DNA of 64,000 nt from Chlamydiota bacterium (GCA_016178055.1 JACOUC010000034.1:20621-84620), one strand, 5' to 3'. Shown: positions 1,933 through 59,870, counted from the first letter of the stretch. Made by a program: numbers and translations. Notes: generated by a model from the letters alone, not told the origin.

Positions 1933-2066
1933 AGAAGCTAGAAGTTGAAGGCTATTAAAAACTGCTAGAGGCTGAAAGCTAAAGGCTAGAAGTAATAACG
2001 TATTTACATCTAGCTTCCAGCCTCTAGCGTCTAGCTGTTCTTCTAGCTTCCAGCTTCTAGCTCTTT
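1933..2066. repeat. Family B palindromic repeat (words GCTAGAAG / CTAGCTTCCAGCCTCTAGCGTCTAGCT) between hemX-like and hemA
   Basis: Inverted arms gctagaag..gctagaggctgaaagctaaaggctagaag versus ctagcttccagcctctagcgtctagct..cttctagcttccagcttctagc; 28-mer tctagcttccagcctctagcgtctagct identical to copy at 59745-59772. Confidence 0.7.
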
Positions 2067-2083
2067 TTTAGTCAAAGGTAAAA

Positions 2084-3133
2084 ATGAATATCCAAGTCAT
2101 TGGACTTAATCATAAAACGGCGGATGTGGCCTTGCGAGAAAAGTTGGCGTTTAGCCAGCCTCAGGCCATGGAATGTCTGAAACGTATTCGGGAGTTGGGC
2201 CTTGCCTCAGAGGCGTTGGTTCTCTCGACCTGTAACCGTGTGGAGTTTTATAAGGTCTGGGACAGGTCTGATTCTCTTGAAAGTCTAGCCAAATTTCTAG
2301 GGCAATTTCATAAAGTGAGCATTCCTGATTTTGAAAAATCCCTTTATTTTTACGAAGGGCGTGATGCTGTCCGTCATTTGTTTCGTGTGGCTTCAGGGCT
2401 TGACTCTATGGTGGTTGGAGAAACAGAAGTTTTGGGCCAAGTGAAAAAGGCTTATCAGTTGGCGAGCGAGATTCAATCAACAGGTCTTATTTTAAACACC
2501 CTTTTCCAAAAATCTTTTTATGTGGCCAAACTTTTACAGAGTACGACGAAGATTCACGAAGGGAGTCTTTCGGTAAGTTCTGTTGCTGTCCAACTTGCAG
2601 AAAAAATTTTCGGAAGTTTATTTTCAAAAACGGTTCTTCTGGTCGGAGCGGGTAAGGTCAGCGAACAAACGGTTCGTAAACTGGTCGAGAAAGGTGTGAA
2701 AGGAATTATTGCCTCCAATCGCTCTTTTGAAAAAGCGCAAAGCCTGGCTCAAAAGTTTTCAGGAAAGGCAATCCGGTTCGATGAAATTAAAACGCAAGGG
2801 ATTGAGGCTGATATCTTGATCAGTTCAACCGCAGCTCCTCATTTTATTTTGCATCGAGAGGATGTTCTTGAACTGATGGATCGGCGCCGGCAGCATTCGC
2901 TTTTTATGATTGATATTGCTGTTCCCCGCGATATTGATCCGGAGGTCAACGCCTTGGATAATGTTTATCTCTATAATATTGATGATTTAAAGGGGATTGC
3001 AGAAAAAAATTTACAAGAGCGATTGAAGGAATGTGAAAAGGCGGATGCTTTGGTCGAGGAAGAAACAGGACGATTTATGAATCGATATCAGGTAATGATC
3101 ACTCGATCGAATGGAATATCAGGAAAAAATTAA
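2084..3133 (+). CDS. hemA: glutamyl-tRNA reductase
   Basis: 349 aa; VIGLNHKTA..VLSTCNRVEFY catalytic Cys motif, NAD-binding GAGK segment. Confidence 0.9.
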   Translation: MNIQVIGLNHKTADVALREKLAFSQPQAMECLKRIRELGLASEALVLSTCNRVEFYKVWDRSDSLESLAKFLGQFHKVSIPDFEKSLYFYEGRDAVRHLFRVASGLDSMVVGETEVLGQVKKAYQLASEIQSTGLILNTLFQKSFYVAKLLQSTTKIHEGSLSVSSVAVQLAEKIFGSLFSKTVLLVGAGKVSEQTVRKLVEKGVKGIIASNRSFEKAQSLAQKFSGKAIRFDEIKTQGIEADILISSTAAPHFILHREDVLELMDRRRQHSLFMIDIAVPRDIDPEVNALDNVYLYNIDDLKGIAEKNLQERLKECEKADALVEEETGRFMNRYQVMITRSNGISGKN

Positions 3134-4069
3134 ATGAAGACCTATTGGGTGATTGCAAGTCGGGGGAGCAAGCTCGCGTTGTGGCAGGCTCGATTTGTTC
3201 AAGAGCAAATTTCGGAAATTTTTCCAGATTTTGAAATTAAGATTAAAATAATCAAAACTTTAGGAGATACCCAAAGAAGTCAAAAATTGTGGGAAATGGG
3301 TGGAAAAGGTGTTTTTACCAAAGAATTAGAAGAGGCTCTTTTATCAAAAGAAGCCGATTTTGCTGTTCATAGTTTGAAAGATCTTCCGACCCAATTACCT
3401 TTGGGTTTATGTTTAGGAGCCGTTCCCGTTCGTGAGTCACCCCAAGATGTTTTGGTGTCCAAAGATCATGTCCGTTTTGAATATCTTCCACAAGGGGCTC
3501 GTGTTGGAACCTCGAGTTTTCGCCGACGTTCTCAACTTCTTTCTACGCGGCCTGATCTTGTAGTGGAAGAGATTCGAGGAAATGTTTCGACCCGTATTAA
3601 AAAAGTTTATGAAGGTCCTCTCGATGCGGTGGTGCTTGCAAAAGCTGGAATGATACGTTTAGGGCTGGAAGAATGGATCACCCAGGAATTCGCTTTTGAA
3701 GAAATGCTTCCGGCCGTAGGTCAAGGAGCCTTAGCGGTTGAAATTCGAAAGGATGACCGTGAGGCGCAAGAACTATTGAACCCTCTTCAGGATGAGGATC
3801 TTTTTTGTGCTACGGGGGCCGAACGGGCTTTTTTAGATTGCTTAGGGGGAGGATGTCGTCTTCCGATTGCAGCCTATGGAGAGGTAGCGGGTGATGAATT
3901 ATCTCTTGAGGGACTTGTAGCCACGCCTGATGGGAAAAAAATAATTCGTAAAAAAATTTTTGGAAATAAAAGTGATTTTGAAAAATTAGGAAAACAATTG
4001 GCCCAATCGATGTTGGAAGAAGGGGCAAGTAAAATGATTCATAGGAGCCGTGATTCATCTTTTTTTTGA
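3134..4069 (+). CDS. hemC: hydroxymethylbilane synthase (porphobilinogen deaminase)
   Basis: 311 aa; GSKLALWQA N-terminus, GGGC dipyrromethane cofactor Cys region; directly abuts hemA. Confidence 0.9.
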   Translation: MKTYWVIASRGSKLALWQARFVQEQISEIFPDFEIKIKIIKTLGDTQRSQKLWEMGGKGVFTKELEEALLSKEADFAVHSLKDLPTQLPLGLCLGAVPVRESPQDVLVSKDHVRFEYLPQGARVGTSSFRRRSQLLSTRPDLVVEEIRGNVSTRIKKVYEGPLDAVVLAKAGMIRLGLEEWITQEFAFEEMLPAVGQGALAVEIRKDDREAQELLNPLQDEDLFCATGAERAFLDCLGGGCRLPIAAYGEVAGDELSLEGLVATPDGKKIIRKKIFGNKSDFEKLGKQLAQSMLEEGASKMIHRSRDSSFF

Positions 4070-4522
4070 TTTTTTAAAAACTTGAACGAGGGCTTCTAAA
4101 TCAATTTTATCATGAGGACGACCGGCTTCTTTTTTAGCTTGAATCAGATCTTTTAGGCTGATCAAATGAATTTTTTCTTTTCCATAAAAGACCTGTTTTC
4201 TCCTTTTCCAAGCCTCTTCAAATGGAAGCTTACCAATTCCCATCAAAATATCGATTCTGTTTGGCTCCATCCCAATTTGATAGACCATTTTAACATTACA
4301 AAGATCATCCAGTGATAAATTTCCAACAGGAGCACCAAATTTTTCAAGTAGTTTATAGACTTTTTCGGCGTTATCTGAGTCAGGTTTAATCCAAATATCC
4401 AAATCCTTGGTGTAGCGAGGTTCCGTATAAACAATCACGGCATAAGCCCCTACAACCAAGTATTTAGCCTTTGCGGAGTTTAAGAGATGCAACAGTTCTT
4501 CGAAGTCTCTGTTGATGGGCAT
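4055..4522 (-). CDS. minimal nucleotidyltransferase-fold protein (MNT-like, G..Y..DLD motif)
   Basis: 155 aa; LVVGAYAVIVYTEPRYTKDLDIWI matches Pol-beta-like NTase GS/x9-13/DxD core; 3' end overlaps hemC stop by 15 bp (convergent). Confidence 0.45.
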   Translation of the reverse strand: MPINRDFEELLHLLNSAKAKYLVVGAYAVIVYTEPRYTKDLDIWIKPDSDNAEKVYKLLEKFGAPVGNLSLDDLCNVKMVYQIGMEPNRIDILMGIGKLPFEEAWKRRKQVFYGKEKIHLISLKDLIQAKKEAGRPHDKIDLEALVQVFKKSKKR

Positions 4523-4701
4523 AACCTGGCTTCCAGTTGGCTAGATCGCATACCATATTCCAAGCGGCCTCAAATTTTCCCTGGGTACCGATCCTTTTCC
4601 AGAAGAGGAGATCAAAATCACGACGGGCCTCTTTTAATGGAACCAATCGGCTCATCATCATTCTTCTTTTCTTCATCTTCGGATTCATTGTAAGGATGGT
4701 A

Positions 4702-5880
4702 TCATATTTCTGGCTGAACACGTTCAGCTTTTGGGGGTAGAAATGCCAAGATCATTTCCTTGCGTGTTCGGTATCCTTCTTTTCCCTTGGCTAGCAAACC
4801 CATTAGACGCAGTTCATTGATATCCCGTGATAATGTTTTTGTAGTTTTTCTTGCATAGGATGCGGCTACCCGGGGGCTTACCTCAGTCAATCTATCAAAA
4901 GGAATAGGACCCTCTGTCAAAGATAGATCTAATATGAGATGGCGACGACGGACGTCACCCAGAGACGTTTTATCACGAAAAGATTCGTGGACGTAATTGC
5001 GCCAGACCACATCCCATTGCTGATCGCGAATACGTTCAAGCTGTGATTTTAGACCATCTACAAAACCTTGAACTGCATATTCAATGAAAGGAAGAATATC
5101 TCCTCCAGATTGGCTTGCATAGTCCAGTTGACGGTAATACTCAGTTCTTGTTTGATTGTAATGATTGCTGAAAAGATGCGCGGCAGGTGCAGGCACCCCT
5201 GAACTAATCAAAATCTGAAATTCGACAAGTCGTGCGGTTCTTCCATTACCATCGTCGAATGGATGAATCCAGGCCAGATAAAGATGTGACAAGACAGCTT
5301 TCAAAATAGCGTACACAATTTCCATATTTTGAGGTGCTTTAAAATTTTCTCCATTGAGCCAATCGCATAATCTTTGAAGTAAAAGTTCACATTCTCCAGC
5401 CGGAGCCCCTTTGTAACGGGCTACGCCAACTTGATGTTTTCTCGATTCACCAGGAATAACTTCTGCTGCGAGGTTTAGTTTGTTTAAAACAATTTTGTTC
5501 AATGCCTTGATTGTTTCAGGCCTGAGCGCCAGCTGGCGACCTTGCCGAATTTCTTCCAAGATTTGATTACATCCTTCAAGAATGTTGTCGATCTCCTGAG
5601 CTAAATATTCGCGAGATGGAGGTAGCTTTAGTTTACCTTCAAGATGCTGAAGAACTTCTTCTTCTGATAAAGTGTTGCCTTCAATCGCTGTAGTGGCCAG
5701 GGCTCCTTTGGCTAGATAGAGTTGATAAAGTTTTTCTGCTGTATTTGGGCGAAGAGGAACGCCTGCAATATGTGCGCATTTTGACTGTGCTTCTCCAAGA
5801 AGCAACCACAATTTGGGAGAGGCCGTTCTCAAATCTATGTAAAACTTTAACCAAGGATGTGTCTCTTTATATGTCTCCAT
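4702..5880 (-). CDS. Fic family protein (class II, with N-terminal inhibitory TxxxEGN motif)
   Basis: 392 aa; canonical Fic motif HPFDDGNGRTARL; upstream TTAIEGNTLS matches [ST]xxxE[GN] alpha-inh; C-terminal wHTH-like tail. Confidence 0.85.
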   Translation of the reverse strand: METYKETHPWLKFYIDLRTASPKLWLLLGEAQSKCAHIAGVPLRPNTAEKLYQLYLAKGALATTAIEGNTLSEEEVLQHLEGKLKLPPSREYLAQEIDNILEGCNQILEEIRQGRQLALRPETIKALNKIVLNKLNLAAEVIPGESRKHQVGVARYKGAPAGECELLLQRLCDWLNGENFKAPQNMEIVYAILKAVLSHLYLAWIHPFDDGNGRTARLVEFQILISSGVPAPAAHLFSNHYNQTRTEYYRQLDYASQSGGDILPFIEYAVQGFVDGLKSQLERIRDQQWDVVWRNYVHESFRDKTSLGDVRRRHLILDLSLTEGPIPFDRLTEVSPRVAASYARKTTKTLSRDINELRLMGLLAKGKEGYRTRKEMILAFLPPKAERVQPEI

Positions 5881-6119
5881 ATTTGTCCTATATTACCTAT
5901 TTATAATAGCTTTGTTATATAAAATAAGTCTATAATTTTGTCTCTAATTTTAGTCCATTTTGTATGGGTGGTCAATTTAATATCTGCATCCCTCTACTGT
6001 ATAATCTTTGTGTATTTTACATTGCCAGCAGTTGAAAAACATGTTTTGCCAAATGAAAGAATGGTAATCTTAATCTCGATTTTGTACAAAAAAATTCTAG
6101 ATTCAAGGGTGTATTTCTC

Positions 6120-7676
6120 ATGACTCAAGAAAAAAAAGGTAAAGTCTATCTTGTCGGGGCGGGGCCAGGAGATCCAGGGCTTTTGACTGTGAAGGCACTT
6201 CATCTCATCCAAGAGGCAGACGTTCTTGTCTATGATGCTCTGGTCTCTGAGAATATTATTCGTAATGCTCCTTCCAGTGTCGAACTTATTTTTGTTGGGA
6301 AAAGAGGTGGGGAAGTTTCCGTTTCTCAAAAAGAGATTGAAGCGATTTTAATTGAAAAGACTCATCAAGGGAAAACGGTCGTTCGATTGAAAGGGGGAGA
6401 TCCCTTTATTTTTGGCCGAGGAGCTGAAGAGGCTTTATTTCTAACCCATCAAGGAATTGATTGGGAGGTGGTTCCCGGCGTATCCTCTGCAGTTGCAGTT
6501 CCAGCCTATGCAGGGATTCCCTTAACGCATCGAGATTTTACTTCATCAGTAGGTTTTTTGACAGGTCATGAAAATTCAAGAGAGGAAGAGAGTCAGATCC
6601 CTTGGTCTAAAATTTCGACTGGTTTAGGTACACTGGTTTTTTTAATGGGGGTTTCTCAACTACAACATATTGTTCACGAGCTTATTCGGAATGGACGGCC
6701 CACCTCAACTCCCTGTGCCATGGTTATGTGGGGGACGCTTCCAAGGCAAAAAACAGTTGTAGGAAATTTGTCCGATGTCGTTGGAAAGGTAAAAGAGGCT
6801 GGGTTAGAGGCGCCTTCTATTTTTATTGTTGGAGAAGTGGTTAGACTTCGGGAAAAGCTTAACTGGTTTGAAAAGGGACCTCTTTTTGGGAAAAGGATTT
6901 TAGTCACCCGCTCAAGAGAACAAGCCAGTACATTGGTTAATACTCTAGAAAAATTGGGGGCAGACCCTATTGAGTTTCCCGTGCTTCAGGTGGTTCCCCC
7001 TGAAAATTGGGCTCCGATCGACCAGGCGATTTTTCATTTAGCAAAATTTAACTGGATTGTTTTTACCAGTGTCAATGCGGTCAATATTTTTTTAGAACGT
7101 TTGAAGCTTCATTTAAAAGATATTCGAGATTTAAAAGGAATCAAAATTGCGGCCATGGGTGATGTAACGCGTGAAGCGCTTGAAAAATACAGCATCAGCG
7201 TTGATTTAACCCCTCGCGAATTTGTTTCGGAGGCCTTGCTAGAAAGTTTTAAGGAGTTAGGAAATCTTAAAAGTCAAAATTTTCTTTTACCTCGAGCCGA
7301 GGGGGCGAGAATTCTTCTTTCTGAGGGATTAAAAAAAGAAGGGGCTTGGGTGACGGATATCATTCTTTATAAAACAGTCTATCCTCCGATCCATGAAGGA
7401 TCTTCGTTCCTCCATGAAATTTTTAATTCTAAAATGGACTGGGTTACTTTTACCAGTTCCTCTACAGTCAAAAATTTTGTTGAGAGTTTGGGAAATCATT
7501 TTGAATCCTTAAAAAATCATTTTAAGGTGGCCAGCATAGGTCCCATTACTTCGGCTACAGCCCGAGGATTAGGTTTAAAGGTGGATATTGAAGCAAAGGT
7601 TCATACGATTGAAGGTTTGGTAGAGGCGTTGGTGGAGTATGAAAATCCAGAAATCAAATATCAAAAATCAAAATGA
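6120..7676 (+). CDS. cobA/hemD: uroporphyrinogen-III C-methyltransferase / uroporphyrinogen-III synthase fusion (CobA-HemD); C-terminal ..IKYQKSK tail and stop supplied by Family A repeat
   Basis: 518 aa; N-terminal VYLVGAGPGDPGLLT SAM-dependent tetrapyrrole methylase; C-terminal ~250 aa HemD-like (RILVTRSREQ..); last ~8 codons plus TGA lie inside repeat arm. Confidence 0.85.
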   Translation: MTQEKKGKVYLVGAGPGDPGLLTVKALHLIQEADVLVYDALVSENIIRNAPSSVELIFVGKRGGEVSVSQKEIEAILIEKTHQGKTVVRLKGGDPFIFGRGAEEALFLTHQGIDWEVVPGVSSAVAVPAYAGIPLTHRDFTSSVGFLTGHENSREEESQIPWSKISTGLGTLVFLMGVSQLQHIVHELIRNGRPTSTPCAMVMWGTLPRQKTVVGNLSDVVGKVKEAGLEAPSIFIVGEVVRLREKLNWFEKGPLFGKRILVTRSREQASTLVNTLEKLGADPIEFPVLQVVPPENWAPIDQAIFHLAKFNWIVFTSVNAVNIFLERLKLHLKDIRDLKGIKIAAMGDVTREALEKYSISVDLTPREFVSEALLESFKELGNLKSQNFLLPRAEGARILLSEGLKKEGAWVTDIILYKTVYPPIHEGSSFLHEIFNSKMDWVTFTSSSTVKNFVESLGNHFESLKNHFKVASIGPITSATARGLGLKVDIEAKVHTIEGLVEALVEYENPEIKYQKSK

Positions 7677-7765
7677 CAAACCAAAATTTAAAATACTTCC
7701 CTTGCAAGGGTGCTAGAATATTTTTGAATTTTGATGTGTCATTTTGCATTTTGATTTTTGGATTC
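7645..7765. repeat. Family A palindromic MITE/REP-like element (copy A1)
   Basis: Left arm aaatcaaatatcaaaaatcaaaatgacaaaccaaaatttaaaat, unique centre, right arm attttgatgtgtcattttgcattttgatttttgg (inverted). Confidence 0.8.
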
Positions 7766-8609
7766 TAAATTAATTATGAAGCTAGGTAAATTTGAAATCT
7801 ATGTTATTTCTGACGGTCTCTTTCAATTGGATGGCGGGACGATGTTTGGCATTGTTCCTAAGGTGATTTGGTCTAAATTTCTTCAAGTTGATCAAAATAA
7901 CATGGCTTTATGGGGGACGCATTGCCTTTTGGTTGTTGTGAAAGGTAAAAAGATTTTAATTGAAACGGGAATTGGATCAAAGCTTGATTCCAAGAAAAAG
8001 AAAATTTATGGTCGATCAGATGATGGAGCTTTTTCACAAAATTTAAAGAAAGCAGGTTTTAGTTTTGAGGAGATTGATTTTGTCATTCCAACCCATTTAC
8101 ATATGGATCATGCAGGAGGCTTTACTTGTTTTGAAAATGGAAAATTAAAGACGCGGTTTTCAAAGGCCCGATACTTGATTCAGAAAAAAGAATGGGAGGC
8201 TGCGATTCATCCTACGCGTTTGAGTCGGGGATCGTATTGGGAGGAGAATTTTTTGCCTGTCTTGGATCATCATCAGGTAGAATGGCTTGATGGAGATATA
8301 GAGTTGTTGCAAGGTCTCGATATTATGCTGACGGGTGCCCATAGCCAAGGCCATCAGGCGATTAAAATTTTTTCAGAAGGGAAAACACTTTTTTGTGGTG
8401 GGGATCTTATCCCGAGCCGTTGGCATGTTCGCCAAACTTTTGTTTGTGCTTATGACCTTTGCCCGATGGAGGTGAGTGAATTAAAAACCAAGTGGTTAGA
8501 GAGGGCCTATCAGGAAGATTGGATTCTTCACTGGTACCATGATCCTGAAATGCCCTTTGGAAAAGTCAATAAAGAAGGGGAGAATTTTGTAGGAGACCTC
8601 CGAAAGTGA
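7758..8609 (+). CDS. MBL-fold metallo-hydrolase
   Basis: 283 aa; HLHMDHAGG (HxHxDH) zinc-binding motif. Confidence 0.7.
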   Translation: MDSKLIMKLGKFEIYVISDGLFQLDGGTMFGIVPKVIWSKFLQVDQNNMALWGTHCLLVVVKGKKILIETGIGSKLDSKKKKIYGRSDDGAFSQNLKKAGFSFEEIDFVIPTHLHMDHAGGFTCFENGKLKTRFSKARYLIQKKEWEAAIHPTRLSRGSYWEENFLPVLDHHQVEWLDGDIELLQGLDIMLTGAHSQGHQAIKIFSEGKTLFCGGDLIPSRWHVRQTFVCAYDLCPMEVSELKTKWLERAYQEDWILHWYHDPEMPFGKVNKEGENFVGDLRK

Positions 8610-8617
8610 GGAATTGT

Positions 8618-8737
8618 ATGCCCTATCCCATTCATCGATTGAGACGATTGCGTCAAAATAAAATTTTACGAAGGAATGCTCAAGGAACTGAAGCCTATGG
8701 CTCTGGTTTCCTTGCCAGAAAAGATTCATTGGATTGA
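8618..8737 (+). pseudogene. hemB: hemB (porphobilinogen synthase) 5' remnant, about 39 codons only
   Basis: MPYPIHRLRRLRQNKILRR closely matches conserved HemB N-terminus (..QRPRRLRKSPALR..); ORF stops after 39 aa, rest of gene absent before tRNA-Asp. Confidence 0.45.
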
Positions 8738-8808
8738 AATGATTCGGAAAACGATTTTCTAACTCCGAAAGAAAAAATGACAAATGTACTTAAAGCTACA
8801 GAAAAATC

Positions 8809-8882
8809 CGGGAGTGACGGGGCTCGAACCCGCGACCTCTGCCGTGACAGGGCAGCGCTCTAGCCAATTGAGCTACACCCCC
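8809..8882 (-). tRNA. tRNA-Asp (anticodon GTC)
   Basis: Minus-strand cloverleaf: GGGGGTGTAGCTCAATTGGCTAGAGCGCTGCCCTGTCACGGCAGAGGTCGCGGGTTCGAGCCCCGTCACTCCCG; 7-bp acceptor stem, anticodon loop CTGTCAC, T-loop GGTTCGAGCC; CCA not encoded. Confidence 0.8.
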
Positions 8883-8887
8883 AACAT

Positions 8888-9016
8888 TAAATCAACATTC
8901 AAAAACCAAAATGCAAAATGACAATGTAAAATTTAAAACTTCCTTTTCGCAATAGCATTAGATCATTTTTGGATTTTGATATGTCATTTTGATGTTTGAT
9001 CTTTGATTTTTGAATT
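8888..9016. repeat. Family A palindromic element (copy A2)
   Basis: aaaaccaaaatgcaaaatgacaatgtaaaatttaaaa .. ttttggattttgatatgtcattttgatgtttgatctttgatttttgaa. Confidence 0.8.
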
Positions 9017-9018
9017 TA

Positions 9019-10254
9019 CTACATATTTTCTACAATCGCCTGACCAAATTCAGAGCATTTGAGAAGCTTAGCCCCTTCCATCTGGCGTTCTAAATCGTAG
9101 GTAACCCGCTTTTGAAGAAAGGTCTTGCGAAGTCCTTTCACCACTAAATCAGCTGCCTCTTGCCATCCCAAATATTCCAACATCATAACCCCAGAAAGAA
9201 TCAAAGAGCTAGGATTAATCTTATCCTGGCCTGCGTATTTGGGAGCTGTACCATGAGTCGCCTCAAAAACAGCAACTTCTTCTCCAATATTGGCACCCGG
9301 TCCAAGGCCCAATCCACCCACTTGGGCCAATAAGGCATCGGACATATAATCTCCATTCAAATTCGGAAGAGCAAGTACACTATAGTCAGAAGGCCTCAAC
9401 AAAACCTGTTGAAACATCGCATCAGCAATCACATCATTGATTAAGATTTTATCCTTAGGTCTTTTACCGCCAAAATTTTTTTCAATATCCTCATAGGTTA
9501 CTAATTCTCCTGAAAATTCCTGCCGAGCCAATTCATAACCCCATTCTCGAAAGGCCCCTTCCGTAAACTTCATAATGTTGCCCTTATGAACCATCGTCAC
9601 CGAAGATTTGTGGTGACGAATCGCATATTGAACGGCCATGCGAATTAAACGCTTGGAGCCCATGACGCTCATGGGTTTAACGCCAATACCAGAATCAGGA
9701 CGAATTTTACAACCCATCTCTTCATTCAGAAAACGGATCACTCTCTCTACTTCTTTGGACCCTTGCTTCCATTCAATCCCGGCATAAACATCTTCCGTAT
9801 TTTCTCGAAAAATCACCATGTCAACGAGTTCAGGTCTTTTAATCGGGGAAGGGACCCCTTCAAAATATCGAACGGGCCTCACACACGCAAAAAGATCTAA
9901 TTCTTGACGAAGCGTAACATTCAGACTACGAATTCCCCCTCCGACCGGAGTTGAAAGAGGCCCTTTAATCCCTACCCGAAATTCGCGAAGCGTCTGAAGC
10001 GTTTCTTCAGGAAGCCAATGATTCATTTTGCTCTTTGCCTTTTCACCGGCAAAAACTTCTAACCATTGAATCTCCCTTTTCCCGTCATAGGCCTTCTTCA
10101 CGGCAGCATCCCACACAGGTTGAGTTGCAGCCCAAATATCGGGTCCAACGCCATCGCCCTCAATGTAAGGAATAATCGGCTTAACGGGTACTTTTAATTT
10201 TCCTCCCTCTTTCACAATGGGAGAACCTTTTTCTAACACGTCATTTCGCATCAT
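9019..10254 (-). CDS. icd: NADP-dependent isocitrate dehydrogenase
   Basis: [44 protein letters not shown] near-identical to Icd core; true start taken at MMRNDV (the 22-codon upstream extension in the ORF track is translation of repeat A3). Confidence 0.85.
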
Positions 10255-10269
10255 CGAAACCCTCCGCCA

Positions 10270-10402
10270 AAAAATCCAAAATTCGAAAATCAAAATGCAA
10301 AATGACAAATCAAAATCCAAAAATTTCTAGTGCTATTGCAAAGGTAAAATTTTAAATTTTACAATGTCATTTTAGTTTTTGATTTTTGCATTTTGGATTT
10401 AA
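10270..10402. repeat. Family A palindromic element (copy A3) filling the entire icd/aminotransferase intergenic gap
   Basis: aaatccaaaattcgaaaatcaaaatgcaaaatgacaaatcaaaatccaaaaat .. acaatgtcattttagtttttgatttttgcattttggattt. Confidence 0.8.
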
Positions 10403-12803: not shown

Positions 12804-12852
12804 GAGAATAAAACTCCTTCTTAAATGGAATTGTGGAGGATTATATCAGTAA

Positions 12853-12880
12853 TGAAAATCAAAAATCAAATATCAAAAAT
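12853..12880. repeat. Family A half element (left arm only)
   Basis: aaaatcaaaaatcaaatatcaaaaatcaaaat without inverted partner. Confidence 0.5.
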
Positions 12881-13039
12881 CAAAATTGTGGAGTTTAATG
12901 AGATAGGACAAAAACTGAACAGACAAGCCTAAGGAAAAGGAGCGTACAGCCGCCAACAAAAAAGATGTGTTAATAAAACCTTACCAGCGGTTTAGTGCTG
13001 ACCGCTGTACGCATTGATTGAATGTCTTCGTTTTACCTT

Positions 13040-47585: not shown

Positions 47586-47656
47586 CTACACGGATCGAAG
47601 AAATAGATTTTTTTACTGACCGATGTTCGCTCAATACTGTATGATGCTTTTTTAGA

Positions 47657-48343: not shown

Positions 48344-48421
48344 GGCGTAACATTGTTTTATTGTTATTCCTCTTACGATTCGTTAAAATGTTTAAAATTC
48401 CAAAGACAAAGACAAAAACCT

Positions 48422-52537: not shown

Positions 52538-52638
52538 AGATAGTCAACGCTCGACGGTCAATAGTCCACAGTCGATAGGAAAAAGAATCCTTTATAAGCT
52601 ATGTAACTGTTTAATAGATTACTCCAAGTTGGTAGCAT

Positions 52639-53190
52639 TCACTTAATTTTCTCTCTTGCATCACTAACGAACTTTCCTTGAGGGTATCGCAAGATATATT
52701 TTTGATATTCGCTTTCAGCTTTGCGTGCTTCCTTCAAAAACTTATCATAGATTTTGGCAATCTGGAATTGAGCCTGTTCAGCCTCTGGACTCAAAGGATA
52801 AGATACAACGATTTTCCTGTATTTCTCAATTGCCTCCTCTAACATTTCTTCTTTTTCCTTACCAAATTTCTTAAAAATAGCCGTGTGTTGCTCATCTAAC
52901 GCCTCTCTCCAGGCTCGATGAGCAGCTTCACTCTCTTCATAGGGAGTGGACGAAGATTGAACGGCTCATTGTAAACTCTTCACTTTTTCTCGATAAAAAT
53001 GGATGAGGCTTTTAAGCTTTTCAATTCTTTCATCTTTTTTATCGACCGATTTAAGAAGAACTTCATACGCTTTTTTATACTCGCCTTTTCCAGCAAACCT
53101 CTCAGCCCTTTCGACAGCCCCTCCATAAGAGCCAGTTTCAAGGCGCATGCAAGCGACCGCGGAGACGTACGTTTTATGGTACGTCGACAA
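52639..53190 (-). other. two short TPR-like ORF fragments (68 aa and 74 aa) separated by in-frame TGA; possible disrupted TPR/YbgF-like gene
   Basis: Reading frame of MLEEAIEKYRK.. continues upstream (..PYEESEAAHRAWREALDEQHTAIFKKFGKEKEE) without a start until a TGA; upstream ORF MSTYHKTY.. contains palindrome gacgtacgttttatggtacgtcgac. Confidence 0.25.
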
Positions 53191-53225
53191 GGAAGCGCAG
53201 CATGTAACGCAGAAAATGGCCTTTT

Positions 53226-53699
53226 TCAGCAGTCTATCAACATATCATAAGTATCACTTAGAGACTGAGGTAATACCTTTGTATCCGTCAACACCGGCAT
53301 AAAATTCGTGTCTCCACTCCAACGGGGAACAACATGTATGTGGACGTGATTAACAATTCCAGCGCCTCCCACTCGTCCTAAATTCATTCCAATGTTAAAT
53401 CCGTGAGGCTTCATTTTTTTGATCAGAATTTTTTTAAACTGATTAATGTATTGAAACATTTCCTGAATTTCTTCCGGAGCGAGCAAGGACACATCGCCCA
53501 AGTGCCGATAGGGCGTAACCATAAAATGCCCACTGCTATAAGGGAAAAGATTTAAGACCGCAAAACTAAATTTTCCTCTCGCAAGAATAAGATTTTTTTT
53601 ATCTTTTCTTTCTTTGGGCTTTTTACAAAAAATACACCCCTTTTCAGGAATATGCTTAATATACCTGAGACGCCAGGGTGCCCATAAATGCTTCATCAT
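53226..53699 (-). CDS. HIT-family (histidine triad) nucleotide hydrolase/transferase
   Basis: HVHIHVVPR histidine triad; start at MMKHLW (upstream codons derive from Family F repeat cactcacaactcaccacttaccactcacaac). Confidence 0.8.
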   Translation of the reverse strand: MMKHLWAPWRLRYIKHIPEKGCIFCKKPKERKDKKNLILARGKFSFAVLNLFPYSSGHFMVTPYRHLGDVSLLAPEEIQEMFQYINQFKKILIKKMKPHGFNIGMNLGRVGGAGIVNHVHIHVVPRWSGDTNFMPVLTDTKVLPQSLSDTYDMLIDC

Positions 53700-53777
53700 T
53701 AGTTGTGAGTGGTAAGTGGTGAGTTGTGAGTGAAACAGTATCCACATTTCATAATGTTCACTACGATAGCATATCCA

Positions 53778-54518
53778 TCAATCGGTTGTCACAAGTTTCA
53801 TAATCTCCTTTTCCATAAAATCTTGCACTTGGGGAATGGCCTCTGGAAGAGGAATATCTTTTGCAATCAGTGCGGTCAATGCTGCTGAAAATCGACAACC
53901 CAAACCATGAAAACCTTTCCCCAAAATTCTTTGATGAGGAAATTCAAAGCAATCTTTTCCATCGTAAAGAATATCAACCGGTTCCCCTTCTAAATGACCT
54001 CCTTTGACTAAAACATATTTTGATCCAAAACGGAATATTGCTTGAGCTGCTTTTTTCATGTGAGCAATCTGGGTGACCGCAAACCCAGCCAAAACAGAGG
54101 CTTCATGAAGGTTAGGAGTGACCAGAAAAGCTTGGGCCATCATTTTTTTGAGAGGGGAATGGGCCTTAGGTTCAAGTAAAAGTCTTCCGGTAGAAGAAAC
54201 CATCATGGGATCAATCACTAATTTTACATCAGAATATTCTGCCATTTTCTTTGAAACAAGGTCCACAACCATTTTTTTATAAAGAAGACCTGTCTTGACA
54301 ACCCTCATCGGATAAGTCTCTAAAAGAAGGGAAAGCTGATTTGAAATAATTTTTTTAGGAAGAATATAAAGATGGTTAAATTTTGAAGGAACCTGCGAAG
54401 TCACAACGGTAATGACTGAAACTCCCTCGACTCCATGGGCCCTAAAAGTCTCAAGATCTCTCTGAATCCCTGCTCCACCACTAGGATCAAACCCTGCAAT
54501 GGTCAGCACCTGCTTCAT
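53778..54518 (-). CDS. thiD: hydroxymethylpyrimidine/phosphomethylpyrimidine kinase
   Basis: 246 aa; VLTIAGFDPSGGAGIQRDLETF ribokinase-like/ThiD N-terminus. Confidence 0.7.
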   Translation of the reverse strand: MKQVLTIAGFDPSGGAGIQRDLETFRAHGVEGVSVITVVTSQVPSKFNHLYILPKKIISNQLSLLLETYPMRVVKTGLLYKKMVVDLVSKKMAEYSDVKLVIDPMMVSSTGRLLLEPKAHSPLKKMMAQAFLVTPNLHEASVLAGFAVTQIAHMKKAAQAIFRFGSKYVLVKGGHLEGEPVDILYDGKDCFEFPHQRILGKGFHGLGCRFSAALTALIAKDIPLPEAIPQVQDFMEKEIMKLVTTD

Positions 54519-54519
54519 T

Positions 54520-55182
54520 TTACCTCAATCCTGTTACCCACTGAACTAGAGCATCCAGCACAGGAGCAATAACCTTATCAAAAAATCCTGTTCCCATTAA
54601 AAGAAGTAGAATAAAAAAACCTATTTTATCAAAGGTCATCCAATGAGGAAGAGTTCTACGAGGCAAAAGTCCTGCCAAAATTCGAGAACCATCTAAAGGG
54701 GGAACAGGCACCAGATTGACAAGACCCAGCCAAAGATTAATGACACAAAAAATAAGAAGACTATGAAAGAGAGCTCCTGGTAAAACAAGATGCTGATTAA
54801 CATGAAAATGAACGAGAGTTCCTGCAACCCCTCCTAAAATAAAATTCATCAAAGGCCCTGCCAATCCTACCCATAAAATATCTCGCCTGGGATTTTTCAT
54901 GGCAGAGGGATTGATGGGAACAGGCTTTGCATAGCCAAAAAATACTCTTCCCGTCAACAGCACCTGAAGCAATGGAAGAACGACCGTTCCAAAAGGATCA
55001 ATATGCGGAAGTGGGTTCAGCGTCAAACGTCCTTCGTTCTTGGCCGTTCGATCCCCTCTCAATAAAGCAACCCATCCATGGGCACATTCATGCAATACAA
55101 TCGACAAAAAAAGAAGAAAAAGCTGCAAGATAATTTCCACTAAATCCTCCCATAACTTTTTGACTTTACCCAACCTATCCAA
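54520..55182 (-). CDS. site-2 protease-family (M50) zinc metalloprotease
   Basis: 220 aa; HECAHGW HExxH in first TM, multi-TM. Confidence 0.7.
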   Translation of the reverse strand: MDRLGKVKKLWEDLVEIILQLFLLFLSIVLHECAHGWVALLRGDRTAKNEGRLTLNPLPHIDPFGTVVLPLLQVLLTGRVFFGYAKPVPINPSAMKNPRRDILWVGLAGPLMNFILGGVAGTLVHFHVNQHLVLPGALFHSLLIFCVINLWLGLVNLVPVPPLDGSRILAGLLPRRTLPHWMTFDKIGFFILLLLMGTGFFDKVIAPVLDALVQWVTGLR

Positions 55183-55910
55183 CCATTGGGAAGTTCAATC
55201 TTTGACCATTCACCTTGTTGAGCCTCGATCATCACTTTTAATCCTTCATGAATTTTAGAACTGACCGGGAACGACTTCCCAGGACCGCTTAAAACCTGCA
55301 CCTCTTTTATCAAAATAATTCCCTTGGGGTGCATCACTTCATCCCGACGAACAATATACCAAGAAGTAAGAAATATCACTTGAAATAACGCAAGCACTCC
55401 CGCTGTCATCCAAAGTTTAGATCGGACTTTAGGGATCAAAAAAATGAATGAAAGATTCATCAAAATAAACCACCCAAAAATAACATTGATGAGCACGAGT
55501 TCCCAAAGGCTTAAACGCTTGGCAATCCACTCAAAGGGCTGAAGAAGAAACATGTGGGGAGAAGGAGCCATTTTATCCTGGAGAAGATTATGTGCAAATT
55601 CAAGATTAAGCCTTATTTCCTGATCCCTTCGACTCGATCGAAGGGCACGCTCATAAAAAAGAATCGCTCTTCCTAATTTTCCTAATTTAAAATAACAATT
55701 GCCCATATTGTAATCCATTTCGCTAGATTTAAAACCGCCCTTTTCTATTTTTTTGAAATTGCTAAGGGCCTTTTTAAAATCCCCTTCTGTGTAAGCCTTT
55801 TGGCCTTCCTTAAAAAGTGTTTCAAAAAATGAACTCGCCTGAATTGAGAAAGGCACAAATTGAAAATAAATAACGACGAGAAAGAGGAATCTCTGTATAA
55901 AATTTTTCAT
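55140..55910 (-). CDS. batE: BatE-like TPR/SH3-domain protein
   Basis: 256 aa; signal peptide, TPR repeats, TM, C-terminal SH3-like GWIGWVKSKSYGRI; terminal gene of Bat operon. Confidence 0.55.
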   Translation of the reverse strand: MKNFIQRFLFLVVIYFQFVPFSIQASSFFETLFKEGQKAYTEGDFKKALSNFKKIEKGGFKSSEMDYNMGNCYFKLGKLGRAILFYERALRSSRRDQEIRLNLEFAHNLLQDKMAPSPHMFLLQPFEWIAKRLSLWELVLINVIFGWFILMNLSFIFLIPKVRSKLWMTAGVLALFQVIFLTSWYIVRRDEVMHPKGIILIKEVQVLSGPGKSFPVSSKIHEGLKVMIEAQQGEWSKIELPNGWIGWVKSKSYGRI

Positions 55911-57754
55911 ATTTTTTTCTCTAACTGAGCCAAAATATTTTTAAGTTCTTTAAGAATCTCTTCTTGAGCTAACCCTGACTTTTCCATCGGAGTGAAACGC
56001 CCTAAATTCGATTTTTCAAACATCTCTTCCATCAATTTCAAAAGGGATTCATCAGCCTTTCGCTTTTCTAATTGAATTTTTATTTCATCCCAACGATATC
56101 CTTGAAGAGCCAAACCCAACTTCTTTGAAAGATAATCGGTCAAAACCTGTTCAATCCCTGCGTAAAATTCATTCGCATTTTTATCTCCCCTATAGCGACG
56201 AAGGGCTTTCAACTTTCTAAGCGCCGATCGATAGGACCGCTGAACCATCACCCCTTCAAAATTTCGGGCTACGAAATTACGCCTTAACCAAACCAAAAAG
56301 GAAATCATTAGAAAAAAAAGTGGAAACCCTAAACTAGCAACCATCATTTTTGAGCGAGGCACCCTCTGTCGATGGGTGAAAGCATTAAAATCAGTTTTAA
56401 TAAATTGAATATCTTTTTGAAGCATCTTAAAATCATTTTTAGTTTCTTCCTTGAGAGAAAGTTGTGGTGAAAGATCCCCTTTTCCCTTCTCTACTTGTAT
56501 AGGAATCACAGAAGTACGAAGGGTCTGATAAGATTTTTTCTCAGGACTAAAAAAAGAGAACGAAACACCTGGAATTTCATGGTGTCCTTCTCGCGTTGGA
56601 ATTACAACTTTTTTTACAACCTTTTTACCATGAATTGGGTCCTGATCTTTTTTAATATCTTCCGAATGTCCCGAATCATATATTCGAAAAGCATCTCCAA
56701 AATCAAGATGGGGTTCAGTCAATGTTCCAATATTCCCCTCCCCTTCTAAAGTAATCGAAAGGGTGATGGGCTCTCCTGCTTTCACCTTAGGTGAGTCAAC
56801 ATCTGCCTTCATGTTAAATTCCCCTACAGCCCCTGAGAAATCGGGAGGTTGTCCCTCCTTTGGAAGCTCCTTTACCTTAACCACGATAGGATCTGTTTTC
56901 AAATTTAATCGTCTTCCCTCAAACATTTGAAAGGGATCCGAATCAAAGAATTTAAAGGGGTCATCATCAAAAAATGAAGAAGCACTCCTCCTACGTCCTG
57001 ATGGAATCTGACATTTAAGTTCACTTGGGCCAATGGTTAAATCACCCGATGTGGTTGGGAAAAGGGCCGTTCTTAATTCTGAAACAAGATATTTTTCCCC
57101 ATCAACCACCTCATAATAGGTCTTTTCAGAAGGAATCGTTTCTACCCAAAATCCGGAAAAATTGGGTGGGGCATAAGCCGGTTGACCCAAAAAATTAACC
57201 TTACGATATAATTTAAAAGAGAACATAATTTGTTGACCCACATAAACTTCATTCAAATTAACTTCAGCTCTCGTAAAAATTAAATTCTGAGCCTTTTCTT
57301 CCTCTCTAGAAGCAGGAACTTCCCCCATCGGAAGAGGTCTCCTGTGAGAAGGCCCCCCTCCTTTCTCCTCTACCGCCTGAACCACTTCAATCTCTATCTG
57401 TGAAGTCTGATAAACTTTCTGATCCTGTTTAACTTGAATGGGAGGAACGGTGAATTTTCCCAGCGACTGAGGCTCTAAAATATAGGTATAGGACGCAGAT
57501 GAAGCCATTTTGCCATTGATAATGGTAATATTTTGGGACTGACCCGCTGAATGGGCAACTAAACCCTGCAAATCTGGAATAATGGGTTTTTCAATATTTG
57601 AACCTGTAACAGTAATGGTTAAAACGGTGCTTTCATTCAGAGGAATTCGATGCCGATCAACCGTTGCATCAATCACGTCTTGATCAGATGACCCGGCATA
57701 TCCTGTCCAAAAAATAAAAAAAACAATCATCCATTTTCGCATAGGTTTTACCAA
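55907..57754 (-). CDS. batD: BatD-like oxygen-tolerance protein
   Basis: 615 aa; signal peptide, large periplasmic domain, TM, C-terminal cytoplasmic helix; position after batC. Confidence 0.55.
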   Translation of the reverse strand: MVKPMRKWMIVFFIFWTGYAGSSDQDVIDATVDRHRIPLNESTVLTITVTGSNIEKPIIPDLQGLVAHSAGQSQNITIINGKMASSASYTYILEPQSLGKFTVPPIQVKQDQKVYQTSQIEIEVVQAVEEKGGGPSHRRPLPMGEVPASREEEKAQNLIFTRAEVNLNEVYVGQQIMFSFKLYRKVNFLGQPAYAPPNFSGFWVETIPSEKTYYEVVDGEKYLVSELRTALFPTTSGDLTIGPSELKCQIPSGRRRSASSFFDDDPFKFFDSDPFQMFEGRRLNLKTDPIVVKVKELPKEGQPPDFSGAVGEFNMKADVDSPKVKAGEPITLSITLEGEGNIGTLTEPHLDFGDAFRIYDSGHSEDIKKDQDPIHGKKVVKKVVIPTREGHHEIPGVSFSFFSPEKKSYQTLRTSVIPIQVEKGKGDLSPQLSLKEETKNDFKMLQKDIQFIKTDFNAFTHRQRVPRSKMMVASLGFPLFFLMISFLVWLRRNFVARNFEGVMVQRSYRSALRKLKALRRYRGDKNANEFYAGIEQVLTDYLSKKLGLALQGYRWDEIKIQLEKRKADESLLKLMEEMFEKSNLGRFTPMEKSGLAQEEILKELKNILAQLEKKI

Positions 57755-58659
57755 TCATTCCCATTGTCTGACTCGTCTGAAGATTCTGTCTTTGTTAAAT
57801 TCCAGATTAAATCCTTCTTCTCCTGATTCATCACATCCAAAATCTGAATCGCCTCTTCTTTTTTCATTCCATCTTTCTTCCCTTCCTGACTTTTTTCGGA
57901 AGAAACCGCGGAGGTATCATTTTGGCTTCCCTCTTTTTCATTAGAGAAAGACTGCTCCTTCTTTTCGTCTGACTTTTGTTCATCTTGCTTCTTTGCTTGA
58001 ACCTCTCCTTTTTTCTCCTGGGAAGATTCTTCATCCTCTTTATTTTCTACTGCATCCTTCTCCTCATTTTTTTCTCCTCCTTCCTTCCCAGCTTGAGTTT
58101 CTTTCTCTTCCCCTTTTTTTTCCTGATCTTGCTCCCCCTCTTTTTTATCACCTGATTTCTGTTGTTCTTCTTGCTCTTCTTCTTTTTGTTTCTTTTCGTC
58201 TTTCTTTTGTTTTTGCTTCTCCTCGACTTTTTTCAATGTCACTTCATAATTATATTTAGAATCTAAATCCTTTGGATCTTCTTTGATGGCTTTTTTATAC
58301 CACTCTAAAGCCTGAGCATAATCCCCCTTTTTAAAAGCACAATTTCCAAGACTATAATTGGAAATGGATTTTGTCGAAAGATATTTTGTTTGAGAAGAAA
58401 GAGACTTCTCATAATAATTTTGAGCCTCATCAAAAGCCTTCTTCGCGTAAAAGGCATTGCCCAAATTAAATAAAATACTCAGGTTATCTTCGCTCTTTTT
58501 AAGGGCATCCTGATACCTTTGAATAGCCTCATCATATTGTCCCTTTTGATAGGCCTCATTTCCTTCTCTCGCTAATTGATAACGAGAAAGACCCATTAAA
58601 AAAGGAAGCATGAAGATGAGCAACCCAATTTTTTTCACGCTACCCTCCTTTTCAACCAT
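57748..58659 (-). CDS. batC: BatC-like TPR protein with Lys/Glu-rich low-complexity tail
   Basis: 303 aa; three TPR repeats then (E/K/Q)-rich region. Confidence 0.55.
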   Translation of the reverse strand: MVEKEGSVKKIGLLIFMLPFLMGLSRYQLAREGNEAYQKGQYDEAIQRYQDALKKSEDNLSILFNLGNAFYAKKAFDEAQNYYEKSLSSQTKYLSTKSISNYSLGNCAFKKGDYAQALEWYKKAIKEDPKDLDSKYNYEVTLKKVEEKQKQKKDEKKQKEEEQEEQQKSGDKKEGEQDQEKKGEEKETQAGKEGGEKNEEKDAVENKEDEESSQEKKGEVQAKKQDEQKSDEKKEQSFSNEKEGSQNDTSAVSSEKSQEGKKDGMKKEEAIQILDVMNQEKKDLIWNLTKTESSDESDNGNDW

Positions 58660-59678
58660 TCATTTTTGACCTGTCTAAAAGATCCTTTTCGCTCTCCGAT
58701 TAAATCACATAAAATTATCAAAAAAATTGCCATCAAAAGAGGGCCCTGAAATCGTTCTTCATACTGAGTAACAACAGCCTCTCCAAGCTCACCTCTTTCT
58801 AGCCTATTCACCTCTTTAAAAATTTCTTTAATTTCCATTCCCCCTGAGGTTGCACGAAAATATTTCCCTCCTGTTTTTCCAGCAATTTCCTGGAGTATTC
58901 CTTCATTCAGTTTGGTAAGAATGACCTCTCCTTTTAAATTTCGCTTATGCCCCACCCTCTTCCCTGATTCATCAAACACCGGAATAGGCTCTGGGCTAAG
59001 CGCCCCAATTCCAATGGTGTAAATGTGAATGCCCTTGTCGTGGGCTTTTAAAGCAGCTTCTAAAGGCCCCGTTTCCTGATCCTCTCCATCTGTTAAAAGA
59101 ATGATCGCTTTTCCGCTCGATTTTCCTTGATCAAAAAGGGTTAATGCTTGTTTAATCACTTTTCCAATGGCCGTCCCTTGATGACCTATCAACTCTATAT
59201 CTAAAATTTCTAAATAAATTTTTAGAGCCGCAACGTCAAAGGTTAAAGGGCAAAGGGTCGCAACATCTCCAGAAAATGCAATTAAGCCAACACGGTTTCC
59301 CGCCATTTGCTCTAAAAGATCGACTAACTCTTGCTTCGCCTTCTGGAGACGATTCGGTAGAAAATCTTCCGCTAACATACTGGCAGATGTGTCAACTGCA
59401 ATCACTACATCCATCCCTTTTCTTTGAACACGCTCTTCTCCTTTACCTAATAAGGGTCGTGCCAAGGCGATCAAAATCAGCAAAATTGAAAACCATTCCA
59501 GCGTTTTTATCATTTTCCTCCTTTTTGAACTGACACAATCTGTAAGGAGGAGAAGCGTTCTCGATTTTGCAAAACGGCCTAAACACTTTTTCCTACAGGA
59601 TTCATCCCAAAAAAAGAGAACGGCCATGGGAATAAGAATCCACAATAAATATAAAATTTTATAATCCGCAAATTTCAT
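58635..59678 (-). CDS. batB: BatB-like von Willebrand factor A domain membrane protein
   Basis: 347 aa; two N-terminal TMs, VWA MIDAS DVVIAVDTSASM. Confidence 0.75.
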   Translation of the reverse strand: MKFADYKILYLLWILIPMAVLFFWDESCRKKCLGRFAKSRTLLLLTDCVSSKRRKMIKTLEWFSILLILIALARPLLGKGEERVQRKGMDVVIAVDTSASMLAEDFLPNRLQKAKQELVDLLEQMAGNRVGLIAFSGDVATLCPLTFDVAALKIYLEILDIELIGHQGTAIGKVIKQALTLFDQGKSSGKAIILLTDGEDQETGPLEAALKAHDKGIHIYTIGIGALSPEPIPVFDESGKRVGHKRNLKGEVILTKLNEGILQEIAGKTGGKYFRATSGGMEIKEIFKEVNRLERGELGEAVVTQYEERFQGPLLMAIFLIILCDLIGERKGSFRQVKNEWLKRRVA

Positions 59679-59689
59679 TCACATCACCC

Positions 59690-59870
59690 CTCTTTGAGCT
59701 TTGAACCTTCGACTTGATTTCCTTCTTTCTCTTCTAGCTTCCAGCCTCTAGCGTCTAGCTCGCTTTCTGTTTTTGCCTCGAGCTCCTGCCCCGTCGGATG
59801 ACTTGGGGTCGAGCTTCCAGCCTCGAGCAGTCTTTTTTTGAACTTTGAACCATCTCTAAGGCAGCACCCT
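59690..59870. repeat. composite Family C/Family B repeat block between batB and batA
   Basis: ctttgagctttgaaccttcgactt..tctagcttccagcctctagcgtctagctc (28-mer identical to 2009-2036)..cctcgagctcc..ggtcgagcttccagcctcgagc..gaactttgaacc. Confidence 0.6.

Follow-up and report, generated by a model that had tools for sequence, protein, structure and literature searches.

Families B to F of the short repeats scattered between positions 1933 and 59870 of a 64,000-nt stretch from a Chlamydiota bacterium (GCA_016178055.1 JACOUC010000034.1:20621-84620; the whole stretch is hereafter called the window), together with a further family A, probably constitute a single class, i.e. heterogeneous heptanucleotide tandem arrays (long simple sequence repeats, SSRs, of the short tandemly repeated repetitive, STRR, type) with a slippage-based origin. 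The original prediction had described B to F as independent palindromic families, whereas Tandem Repeats Finder (TRF) and a period scan resolve them into one class of 7-nt tandem arrays. The repeats of the window are regrouped here into heptamer arrays (A to F), one palindrome family resembling repetitive extragenic palindromes (REPs; family G), and one weak pair (H).

The evidence for this class is a strong 7-nt periodicity. When segments of 21 nt with at least 17 self-matches are counted, period 7 yields 87, whereas 30 dinucleotide-preserving shuffles average 0.13 and never exceed 2; period 14 yields 10, and every other period from 2 to 15 yields zero. TRF returns period 7 for each of A, B, C, D, E, and F, with arrays of 4–8 units and 64–91% matches. 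Each array is built of 2–4 variants of a single heptamer word, and the "2–3 word vocabulary" attributed to every family thus corresponds to variants of one heptamer inside a tandem array. At least 6 canonical unit families are found within 64 kb, and B, C, and D have 2–3 loci each. B to F accordingly display the features of heptanucleotide long SSRs or STRRs, i.e. 7-nt head-to-tail units, at least 3–4 heterogeneous copies, a mostly intergenic location, and several families. A CRISPR array was considered and rejected, as the units are 7 nt long and contiguous, not repeats of 24–48 nt with unique spacers. The original prediction was right that the repeats are real, structured, non-random, present in multiple copies, and clustered at the boundaries of genes, and their abundance is far above shuffle expectation.

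Proteins of the window are deposited at NCBI under an uncultured "Chlamydiota bacterium" metagenome-assembled genome (MAG), on a contig of ~88.7 kb. A second MAG (GCA_016196915.1) and three short-read (Logan) contigs of SRR12113417 match it with 100% identity over 39690-48740, 41070-45789, 53166-59699, and 10293-12884. This independent coverage includes C2, F, H2, part of the G cluster, and flanking A-type arrays (the individual copies are described below), while B1, B2, C1, D, and E lie outside it. Because the second MAG and the Logan contigs agree base for base, the covered repeats are not artefacts; the possibility of artefacts or collapsed reads had been raised as a check, and the independent assemblies reproduce every repeat they cover. 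Two of the Logan contigs (L001 and L248) terminate within A-type arrays (window positions 10293, 12884, and 41070). Since short-read contigs stop inside them, A-type arrays behave as multi-copy sequence.

Our gene map, obtained from Pfam scans of ~65 open reading frames (ORFs) of the window and exact look-ups of alternative starts in public annotation, shows a strong bias in where the arrays are located. They cover 12.4% of intergenic DNA vs 0.34% of coding DNA, start on a stop codon or a few bases from one, and extend up to start codons. All overlaps of more than 1 base with coding sequences are at 3′ termini, within the last 1–14 codons. Of the gaps between co-directional genes, 16 of 28 contain an array, compared with 1 of 5 between convergent genes and none of 6 between divergent ones.

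This proximity has consequences at both ends of genes. Array-encoded C-terminal tails are found in HemD (YQKSK before the stop; 7642-7676, HemD/CysG), Der (SKIKNQKSK; 30584-30626), Lnt (KIKIQKSK; 41069-41106), and a TrmA-like methyltransferase (21263-21303). The stop codon of HemD, Der, and Lnt is the TGA of the A-type core AAAATGACA, and the Der tail is missing in relatives. The PgsA tail (...KIQ) was also considered and is native, as the relative contig L122 has this tail without an array. Upstream of genes, longest-ORF calls read through arrays and acquire false N-termini (e.g. LIFEFWIF... and MWILFHSQLTTYHSQL...) at 7758-7775, 10255-10320, 30475-30537, and 53697-53747; for the HIT, icd, dGTPase, and MBL-fold genes, the deposited proteins begin downstream of the arrays. 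In practical terms, the arrays fragment short-read assemblies of this organism and lengthen its ORF calls, which produces false N-termini.

About half of the arrays are paired with an inverted array, which results in a long imperfect stem-loop with a loop of 20–50 nt. Folding of the spacers assigns this form to B1, C2, D2, and eight A-type elements (A-type z-scores from −2.3 to −8.3). The arms are 73–84% complementary and, judged by eye in alignments, mismatches apparently fall mostly at variable word positions. Specifically, B1 (1931-2071) is located between the stop codon of a ccsA-like gene (1932) and the start of hemA (2084), and consists of AGCTAGA/GGCTGAA-type words (1935-1992), the inverse CTAGCTT/CCAGCCT words (2009-2066), and a T6 run; its fold (1931-2066) has a dG of −63 kcal/mol (z −8.4). 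C2 (42564-42690) is a stem-loop of AAAGTTN words and their inverse that begins 5 nt past the secA stop codon and fills the secA-lnt spacer (z −4.4); it is reproduced in the second MAG and in a Logan contig. D2 (14841-14928), downstream of a TPR gene, combines CAGTCYA/CGGTCTA words with their inverse (dG −42.7, z −7.4). The A-type stem-loops are exemplified by 7642-7766, which has AAAATCA-type heptamers and a conserved non-repetitive core (AAAATGACA...TGTCATTTT); the others are located at 8889-9018, 10271-10402, 17936-18040, 22541-22679, 30484-30626, 40969-41106, and 62692-62835.

The remaining copies are single arrays, with folding energies no better than shuffles for C1, D3, E, F, B2, and two A-type arrays (12848-12892 and 21265-21303). 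The description of these repeats as palindromic is valid for B1, C2, D2, and, weakly, D1, which have an inverted partner, and fails for C1, D3, E, F, and B2. B2 (59690-59852, minus strand) is a composite spacer between two VWA/Bat genes without an inverted partner (z −0.5), and includes C-like words (59690-59717), a family B array (59733-59760), TCGAGCT/TCCAGCC words (~59780-59830), and TTGAACT (59838-59852). The family B 28-mer TCTAGCTTCCAGCCTCTAGCGTCTAGCT is identical at 2009-2036 and 59733-59760, i.e. 57 kb apart; the first of these positions had been given correctly, and the second was shifted to 59745-59772. C1 (32593-32641, minus strand) reads ACAGTTT AAAGTTC AAAGTTC AAAGTTT AAGGGTT in the mRNA sense and fills the 35-nt gltX-pgsA spacer. 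As had been proposed, family C supplies the TAA of gltX, which is found at 32629-32631 within the first unit of C1. C1 and C2 share the opening ACAGTTTAAAGTT, which in each case coincides with a stop codon or lies no more than 5 nt from one.

D1 (14505-14562, minus strand) is a single array upstream of pfk (GGTCTAC AGTCAAC GGTCGAC AGTCGGC in the mRNA sense), followed by a short hairpin and T6 (z −3.4), with a terminator-like site at 14535-14515. D3 (52551-52585, minus strand) is a single array of D-type words upstream of an SLT transglycosylase ORF, without a hairpin (z 0.1). E (18633-18662, plus strand; GTCGCCA GTCGCCT GTCACCA GTCACCA) begins at the stop codon of a DsrE-like ORF in a convergent gap (z 1.4). 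F (53701-53732, minus strand; CACTCAC AACTCAC CACTTAC CACTCAC in the mRNA sense) ends ~4 nt upstream of the annotated HIT start (53696) and is reproduced in Logan contig L249. F had been reported as translated into the HIT ORF, which is the case only if the longest ORF is taken; in the public annotation the protein begins at M18 (53696), right after the array. Because the array lies upstream of the annotated start, F is a 5′ leader that is untranslated in the public gene call. Every string quoted in the original prediction is present in the window, with several positions shifted: the D string lies at 14540-14562 (not 14536-14558), the E string at 18634-18660 (not 18633-18660), and the F string at 53702-53732 (not 53700-53730).

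Among these copies, B1 (T6 after the stem) and D1 (hairpin and T6) fit the intrinsic-terminator form, whereas C2, D2, and the single arrays do not. In their predicted folds B1 and D1 look like real intrinsic terminators, and for these two an RNA-level role, as terminator or inter-cistronic barrier, is plausible. B1 and D1 share with Rho-independent terminators the long stem or hairpin followed by T6, and the 3′ arms of A-type elements are U-rich; by contrast, most stems here are 40–55 bp long, AT-rich, mismatched, and without a discrete U-tract. In positions 1-20000 of the window, the number of predicted terminators does not significantly exceed expectation (32 vs 23 ± 4.7). The top match of that scan is a bidirectional site at 19751-19797 (AAAAAAAGCCTCTGAC...GTCGGAGGCTTTTTTTTT), just downstream of an HU-family gene (19430-19744). 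A search against Rfam finds tRNA-Asp only, plus meaningless miRNA-hairpin matches over the G doublet.

Comparison with relatives shows how positions and words behave separately. Der has a small clade of relatives at 56–61% identity, and the order gltX-pgsA-der-dGTPase is kept in three relative contigs (L124/L125, L126, and L122). In L124/L125 and L126, every 21 kb contains 8–11 arrays of period 7, some of them in the same spacers as in the window, built from different words. For example, the der-dGTPase spacer contains GTGGACT/ATGGACC words in a relative vs an A-type stem-loop in the window. L122 has almost no arrays. Across relatives, array positions recur and words do not.

The words of family B, for their part, are found well beyond this lineage. 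A scan for the 19-mer CTAGCTTCCAGCNTCTAGC in one genome per species (596 Gb) finds at least 120 loci, compared with ~17 matches expected by chance (18 fixed bases in 596 Gb). Among the matches listed, nearly all sit in longer CTAGCTT/CCAGCTT arrays at a gene boundary, and the hosts include Acidobacteriaceae (the majority), Anaerolineae, Nostoc, Ruminococcus, Omnitrophota, Patescibacteria, Deinococcales, and Phycisphaerales. Also among the matches listed, 29% of family B arrays have an inverted partner within 250 nt, compared with 4.7% of random windows. Carriers include Nostoc sp. FACHB-280 (L021) and the cultured Telmatobacter bradus and Acidicapsa dinghuensis; such cultured Acidobacteriaceae might lend themselves to reporter and binding assays. 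The repeats had been taken as lineage-specific, which does not hold for family B: heptamer arrays of the same words are present in many other phyla (Acidobacteriota, Chloroflexota, Nostoc, Ruminococcus, Omnitrophota, Patescibacteria, and others). At the 122 foreign loci, the direction of family B arrays with respect to neighboring genes is confounded by spurious long open frames in GC-rich genomes. In viral contigs there is one family B match and no G match, and thus no sign of a phage vector.

A positional regularity emerges in the Acidobacteriaceae. In 13 species among the matches listed, a family B array (CAGCTTCTAGCTNCTAGCTTCCAGCYTCTAGC) starts 0–5 nt past the nusG stop codon, and these nusG-adjoining arrays occupy positions ~0–40 nt after that stop (genomes L011, L018, L020, L034, L044, L049, L051, L062, L063, L103, L105, L106, and L114).

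Under a slippage-based origin, arrays would lengthen, shorten, and homogenize through slipped-strand mispairing in a 7-nt register, inverted partners would result from template switching or inverted duplication, and recombination might occasionally transfer array copies among loci. Selection would purge arrays from coding sequence and divergent promoter regions, leading them to build up where they are tolerated. In transcripts, paired arrays could form stem-loops that serve as barriers at 3′ ends or between cistrons, and single arrays beside start codons could be unstructured leaders; the role in RNA would be the weakest step of this scheme.

Several observations weigh against this account. 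Slippage alone does not explain the same words 57 kb apart (the 28-mer) and in unrelated phyla, and the array after nusG is a hint of some specific function, which would not be expected under a neutral model. No polymorphism in unit number or length is seen between the two MAGs and the Logan assembly, which possibly sample one population. Alignment of hairpin arms reveals no whole 7-nt indels, only 1-nt gaps and word-level mismatches; a difference in arm length in 7-nt units, initially taken as a slippage signature, was withdrawn for this reason. As regards RNA, G-U pairs are not enriched on the sense strand (36 sense vs 37 antisense, with symmetric energy differences), and arrays in only 1 of 5 convergent gaps are weak support for a terminator role. 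As the shared words across loci and phyla and the nusG array exceed what slippage alone accounts for, explanations based on mobile elements and on binding sites stay alive.

It is possible, though unlikely, that each family is a mobile non-autonomous element, i.e. a hairpin with heptamer arms resembling a miniature inverted-repeat transposable element (MITE) or a REP doublet (REPIN), copied by a transposase elsewhere in the genome. At least eight family A stem-loops share the core AAAATGACA...TGTCATTTT and have partly similar loops, the B 28-mer is identical at two distant loci, and C1 and C2 have the same opening next to a stop codon. Short-read contigs break in arrays as they do at multi-copy repeats, and G units occupy non-orthologous sites in a relative. 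By contrast, B to F lack terminal inverted repeats and target duplications, their lengths and word orders are variable, many copies are single arrays without a partner, and orthologous spacers of relatives contain different words. Pfam scans identify no intact transposase in the window, only an IS3 remnant, and there is no transposase in the two ORFs checked beside G units in each of five metagenome contigs. A MITE identity was tried for B to F and found unsupported, given their variable length and the lack of terminal inverted repeats and target site duplications.

We consider it quite unlikely that the arrays are binding sites, with each word family recognized by a regulator that acts on RNA stability, transcription, or translation. 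In agreement with such a role, arrays lie beside stop codons and, in the case of F, C1, and the A-type arrays upstream of icd and dGTPase, beside start codons, words recur across phyla, and the family B array is kept directly past nusG in the 13 Acidobacteriaceae species among the matches listed; binding functions have also been proposed in the literature, among others for the TAACTGA repeats of Beggiatoaceae and the heptanucleotide elements of Geobacter (PMC4679880; PMC2700814; bioRxiv 10.1101/2022.06.06.494920). However, the six or more word families within 64 kb would call for a large number of specific binders, words differ in the orthologous spacers of relatives, the neighboring genes are unrelated housekeeping genes, and no candidate binding protein was identified.

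A broader version of this idea, which we regard as a long shot, is that the same words at gene boundaries in at least 8 phyla reflect a previously unrecognized, widely shared mechanism as opposed to independent slippage accidents. By this mechanism, 7-nt periodic signals in DNA or RNA would be written or read, either by a machinery that has been conserved or by a factor that has spread horizontally. The words concerned include CTAGCTT/CCAGCYT, found in this organism, Acidobacteriota, Chloroflexota, Nostoc, Firmicutes, Omnitrophota, and Patescibacteria, and the array past nusG in the Acidobacteriaceae is one of this kind.

The model of the original prediction, i.e. lineage-specific REP families mobilized by a REP-associated tyrosine transposase (RAYT), is very improbable as an account of all the repeats, and what speaks for it comes from family G only. 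A G unit of ~37 nt consists of a head ((G/A)TAACYCCYCC), 2–3 nt, and a GC stem of 9–11 bp (CYCCCYTTA-loop-TAARGGGRG), whose variants stay paired through two-sided changes (CCCCTC/GAGGGG, CTCCCC/GGGGAG, and CCCCCC/GGGGGG). Searches with nhmmer find four G units in the window. Three form a cluster at 39597-39777 (39597-39633 and 39655-39689 on the plus strand, 39741-39777 on the minus strand), within which 39655-39777 is a REPIN-like inverted doublet with 38-nt arms and a 47-nt spacer. The fourth (36082-36116, minus strand; E 5e-7) is intragenic, lying in frame in a hydrophilic loop of a Wzy_C/TPR protein ORF and encoding INPLAPLKLRGG; its hairpin had been placed at 36055-36085, and the quoted string is actually found at 36084-36104. 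Family G is real and distinct as regards these units, as predicted. The same cannot be said of the GC hairpin at 18095-18125 (CCTCCCCTTTG-loop-CAAAGGAGGGG), also assigned to G, which has mixed G-type arms, no recognizable head, and no nhmmer match at E < 0.01, and whose membership is doubtful.

G units are also present outside the window. The relative L124 has four, at two sites non-orthologous to those of the window (9289-9384 and 21042-21159), with a near-identical element, and its 96-nt doublet (9289-9384) folds as a closed three-hairpin structure (z −5.4). A metagenome scan with the G tail GGGGAGNNGGAGGGGTTAC relied on a poorly chosen pattern, and its 120 matches are mostly G-rich chance hits with about ten real G units. 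G-type units are found in several metagenome contigs, including just downstream of recO in L131 (2179-2232) and L186 (7286-7318), and L131 has four within 300 nt. Judged from its sequence, G may reasonably be regarded as a separate dispersed element of REP/REPIN or MITE type.

Family G resembles REP/REPIN-RAYT systems in its 5′ head (GTAACYCCYCC) beside a GC-rich imperfect palindrome, the compensatory stem changes, the presence of single units, tandem pairs, and an inverted doublet, and the mostly extragenic distribution. As to B to F, their stem-loops could affect transcripts in a similar way downstream. On the other hand, the G head begins GTAAC and is not GTAG-like, and the TAAC...GTTA ends could fit a TA-targeting MITE (TA duplication plus terminal inverted repeat) equally well. 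B to F are variable-number tandem 7-nt units without the fixed 20–40-nt unit and head beside one palindrome; the notion of REP-like systems is reasonable for G alone; family B words are not lineage-specific; and G units are few (4 in 64 kb). Pfam scans detect no Y1 transposase or RAYT gene (PF01797-type) among the ~65 ORFs of the window, none was seen near G units, and a regex for RAYT-like motifs over the window and the retrieved contigs returned nothing, which is weak evidence.

The idea that the repeats are artefacts of assembly or collapsed low-complexity reads, raised by the metagenomic source and by the short-read contigs that end inside arrays, has a negligible chance of being correct, as C2, F, H2, and part of the G cluster are the same in both MAGs and in an independent Logan assembly, NCBI has annotated proteins with array-encoded tails, and like arrays are present in complete genomes such as that of Telmatobacter bradus and in many other assemblies.

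Among known systems, the heptamer arrays are similar to cyanobacterial STRRs, the classical case, in their heterogeneous 7-nt tandem units, several word families per genome, and strong intergenic bias. They differ in that the window belongs to a host labelled Chlamydiota, or of the Planctomycetes-Verrucomicrobia-Chlamydiae (PVC) superphylum, and in that the arrays are short (4–8 units), many with an array-loop-inverted-array structure filling whole spacers. Under the strict definition STRR hosts are heterocystous cyanobacteria; the proteins here are named "Chlamydiota bacterium", and the DUF1559/N_methyl pilin-like genes fit PVC bacteria. Of the STRR units, STRR1 (CCCCAGT) resembles E (CCAGTCA), and STRR3 (CAACAGT) resembles D (AGTCAAC).

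Heptamers are the most abundant long SSR in many bacteria, with slippage proposed as the cause (Mrazek 2007, as relayed in PMC4679880 and PMC4692102). Intergenic, start-codon-adjacent, and inverted arrangements of heptamer repeats have been described elsewhere (PMC4679880; PMC4692102; PMC2700814; bioRxiv 10.1101/2022.06.06.494920), including TTTTGAA/TTCAAAA heptamers near start codons in Nostoc (bioRxiv 10.1101/2022.06.06.494920). The heterogeneous GGGAATC arrays of Xanthomonas differ from one close relative to the next and occur in part as inverted pairs (PMC4692102). These, and the GGGGA(T/C)T repeats of Nostoc, are like the arrays of the window in being heterogeneous, mostly intergenic, variable among close relatives at the same spacer, and in part arranged as inverted pairs capable of forming stem-loops; unlike them, they are G-rich and discussed as G-quadruplex formers, whereas the words of the window are AT-rich or mixed, with no G-tracts (PMC4692102).

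TAACTGA arrays adjoin start codons in Beggiatoaceae, Cyanobacteria, and Bacteroidetes (PMC4679880). They also comprise few units (2–6 copies) located a few nucleotides from starts, are common to unrelated phyla with no evident transfer mechanism, and often lack a canonical ribosome-binding site, as is the case upstream of the HIT gene of the window. By contrast, they have one dominant word and are rarely inverted, whereas the window has many families, half of its arrays in inverted pairs, and a closer tie to stop codons (PMC4679880). Geobacter metallireducens has heptanucleotide elements such as GGACCGG x4, in 49 copies, and MTYCTGA x5, drawn across both strands (PMC2700814). Similarities include several families of 4–5-unit tandem heptamers, found between and within genes and proposed as global regulatory sites; the differences are in words, GC content, and a fixed copy number per array in Geobacter, and in both cases any function is putative (PMC2700814).

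Our literature search found no report of such arrays for Chlamydiae or other PVC bacteria. A PVC/Chlamydiota-labelled lineage joins the hosts of heptanucleotide repeats, which have been reported since 2007. The window is an unusually dense and clear example, with one-eighth of intergenic DNA in arrays, stop codons and tails derived from them, whole spacers turned into stem-loops, and relatives that differ in words; in addition, one word family is common to many phyla and positionally conserved after nusG in Acidobacteriaceae.

As regards the host, the window has three tandem genes for N-terminal-methylation (type IV pilin-like) proteins at 37533-39521, two of them with DUF1559, a domain that we take to be typical of Planctomycetes and Verrucomicrobia. 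A secretin gene at 50060-51949 is grouped with them. Despite the NCBI label, this pilin-like/DUF1559/secretin set fits the PVC superphylum better than classical Chlamydiae.

Family H is restricted to two intergenic copies, H1 (23898-23945, plus strand) and H2 (45873-45920, plus strand), the latter upstream of secA. The ~40 nt reported as shared correspond to a weak similarity, with an exact core of only 12 nt within a ~46-nt core (~36 matches by eye), a mean column identity of 77% over a 139-column alignment, and a hand-estimated E of ~0.002; the pair does not constitute a family. A truncated IS3-family transposase (24490-24882, minus strand), reduced to the C-terminal rve_3 integrase core, is located in an 818-nt gap, with H1 ~550 nt away. 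Lastly, in the relative L124, positions 19541-21323 of an annotated 1553-aa ORF contain at least 6 heptamer arrays of differing words and a G doublet, and this array-packed part of the gene call is probably spurious.

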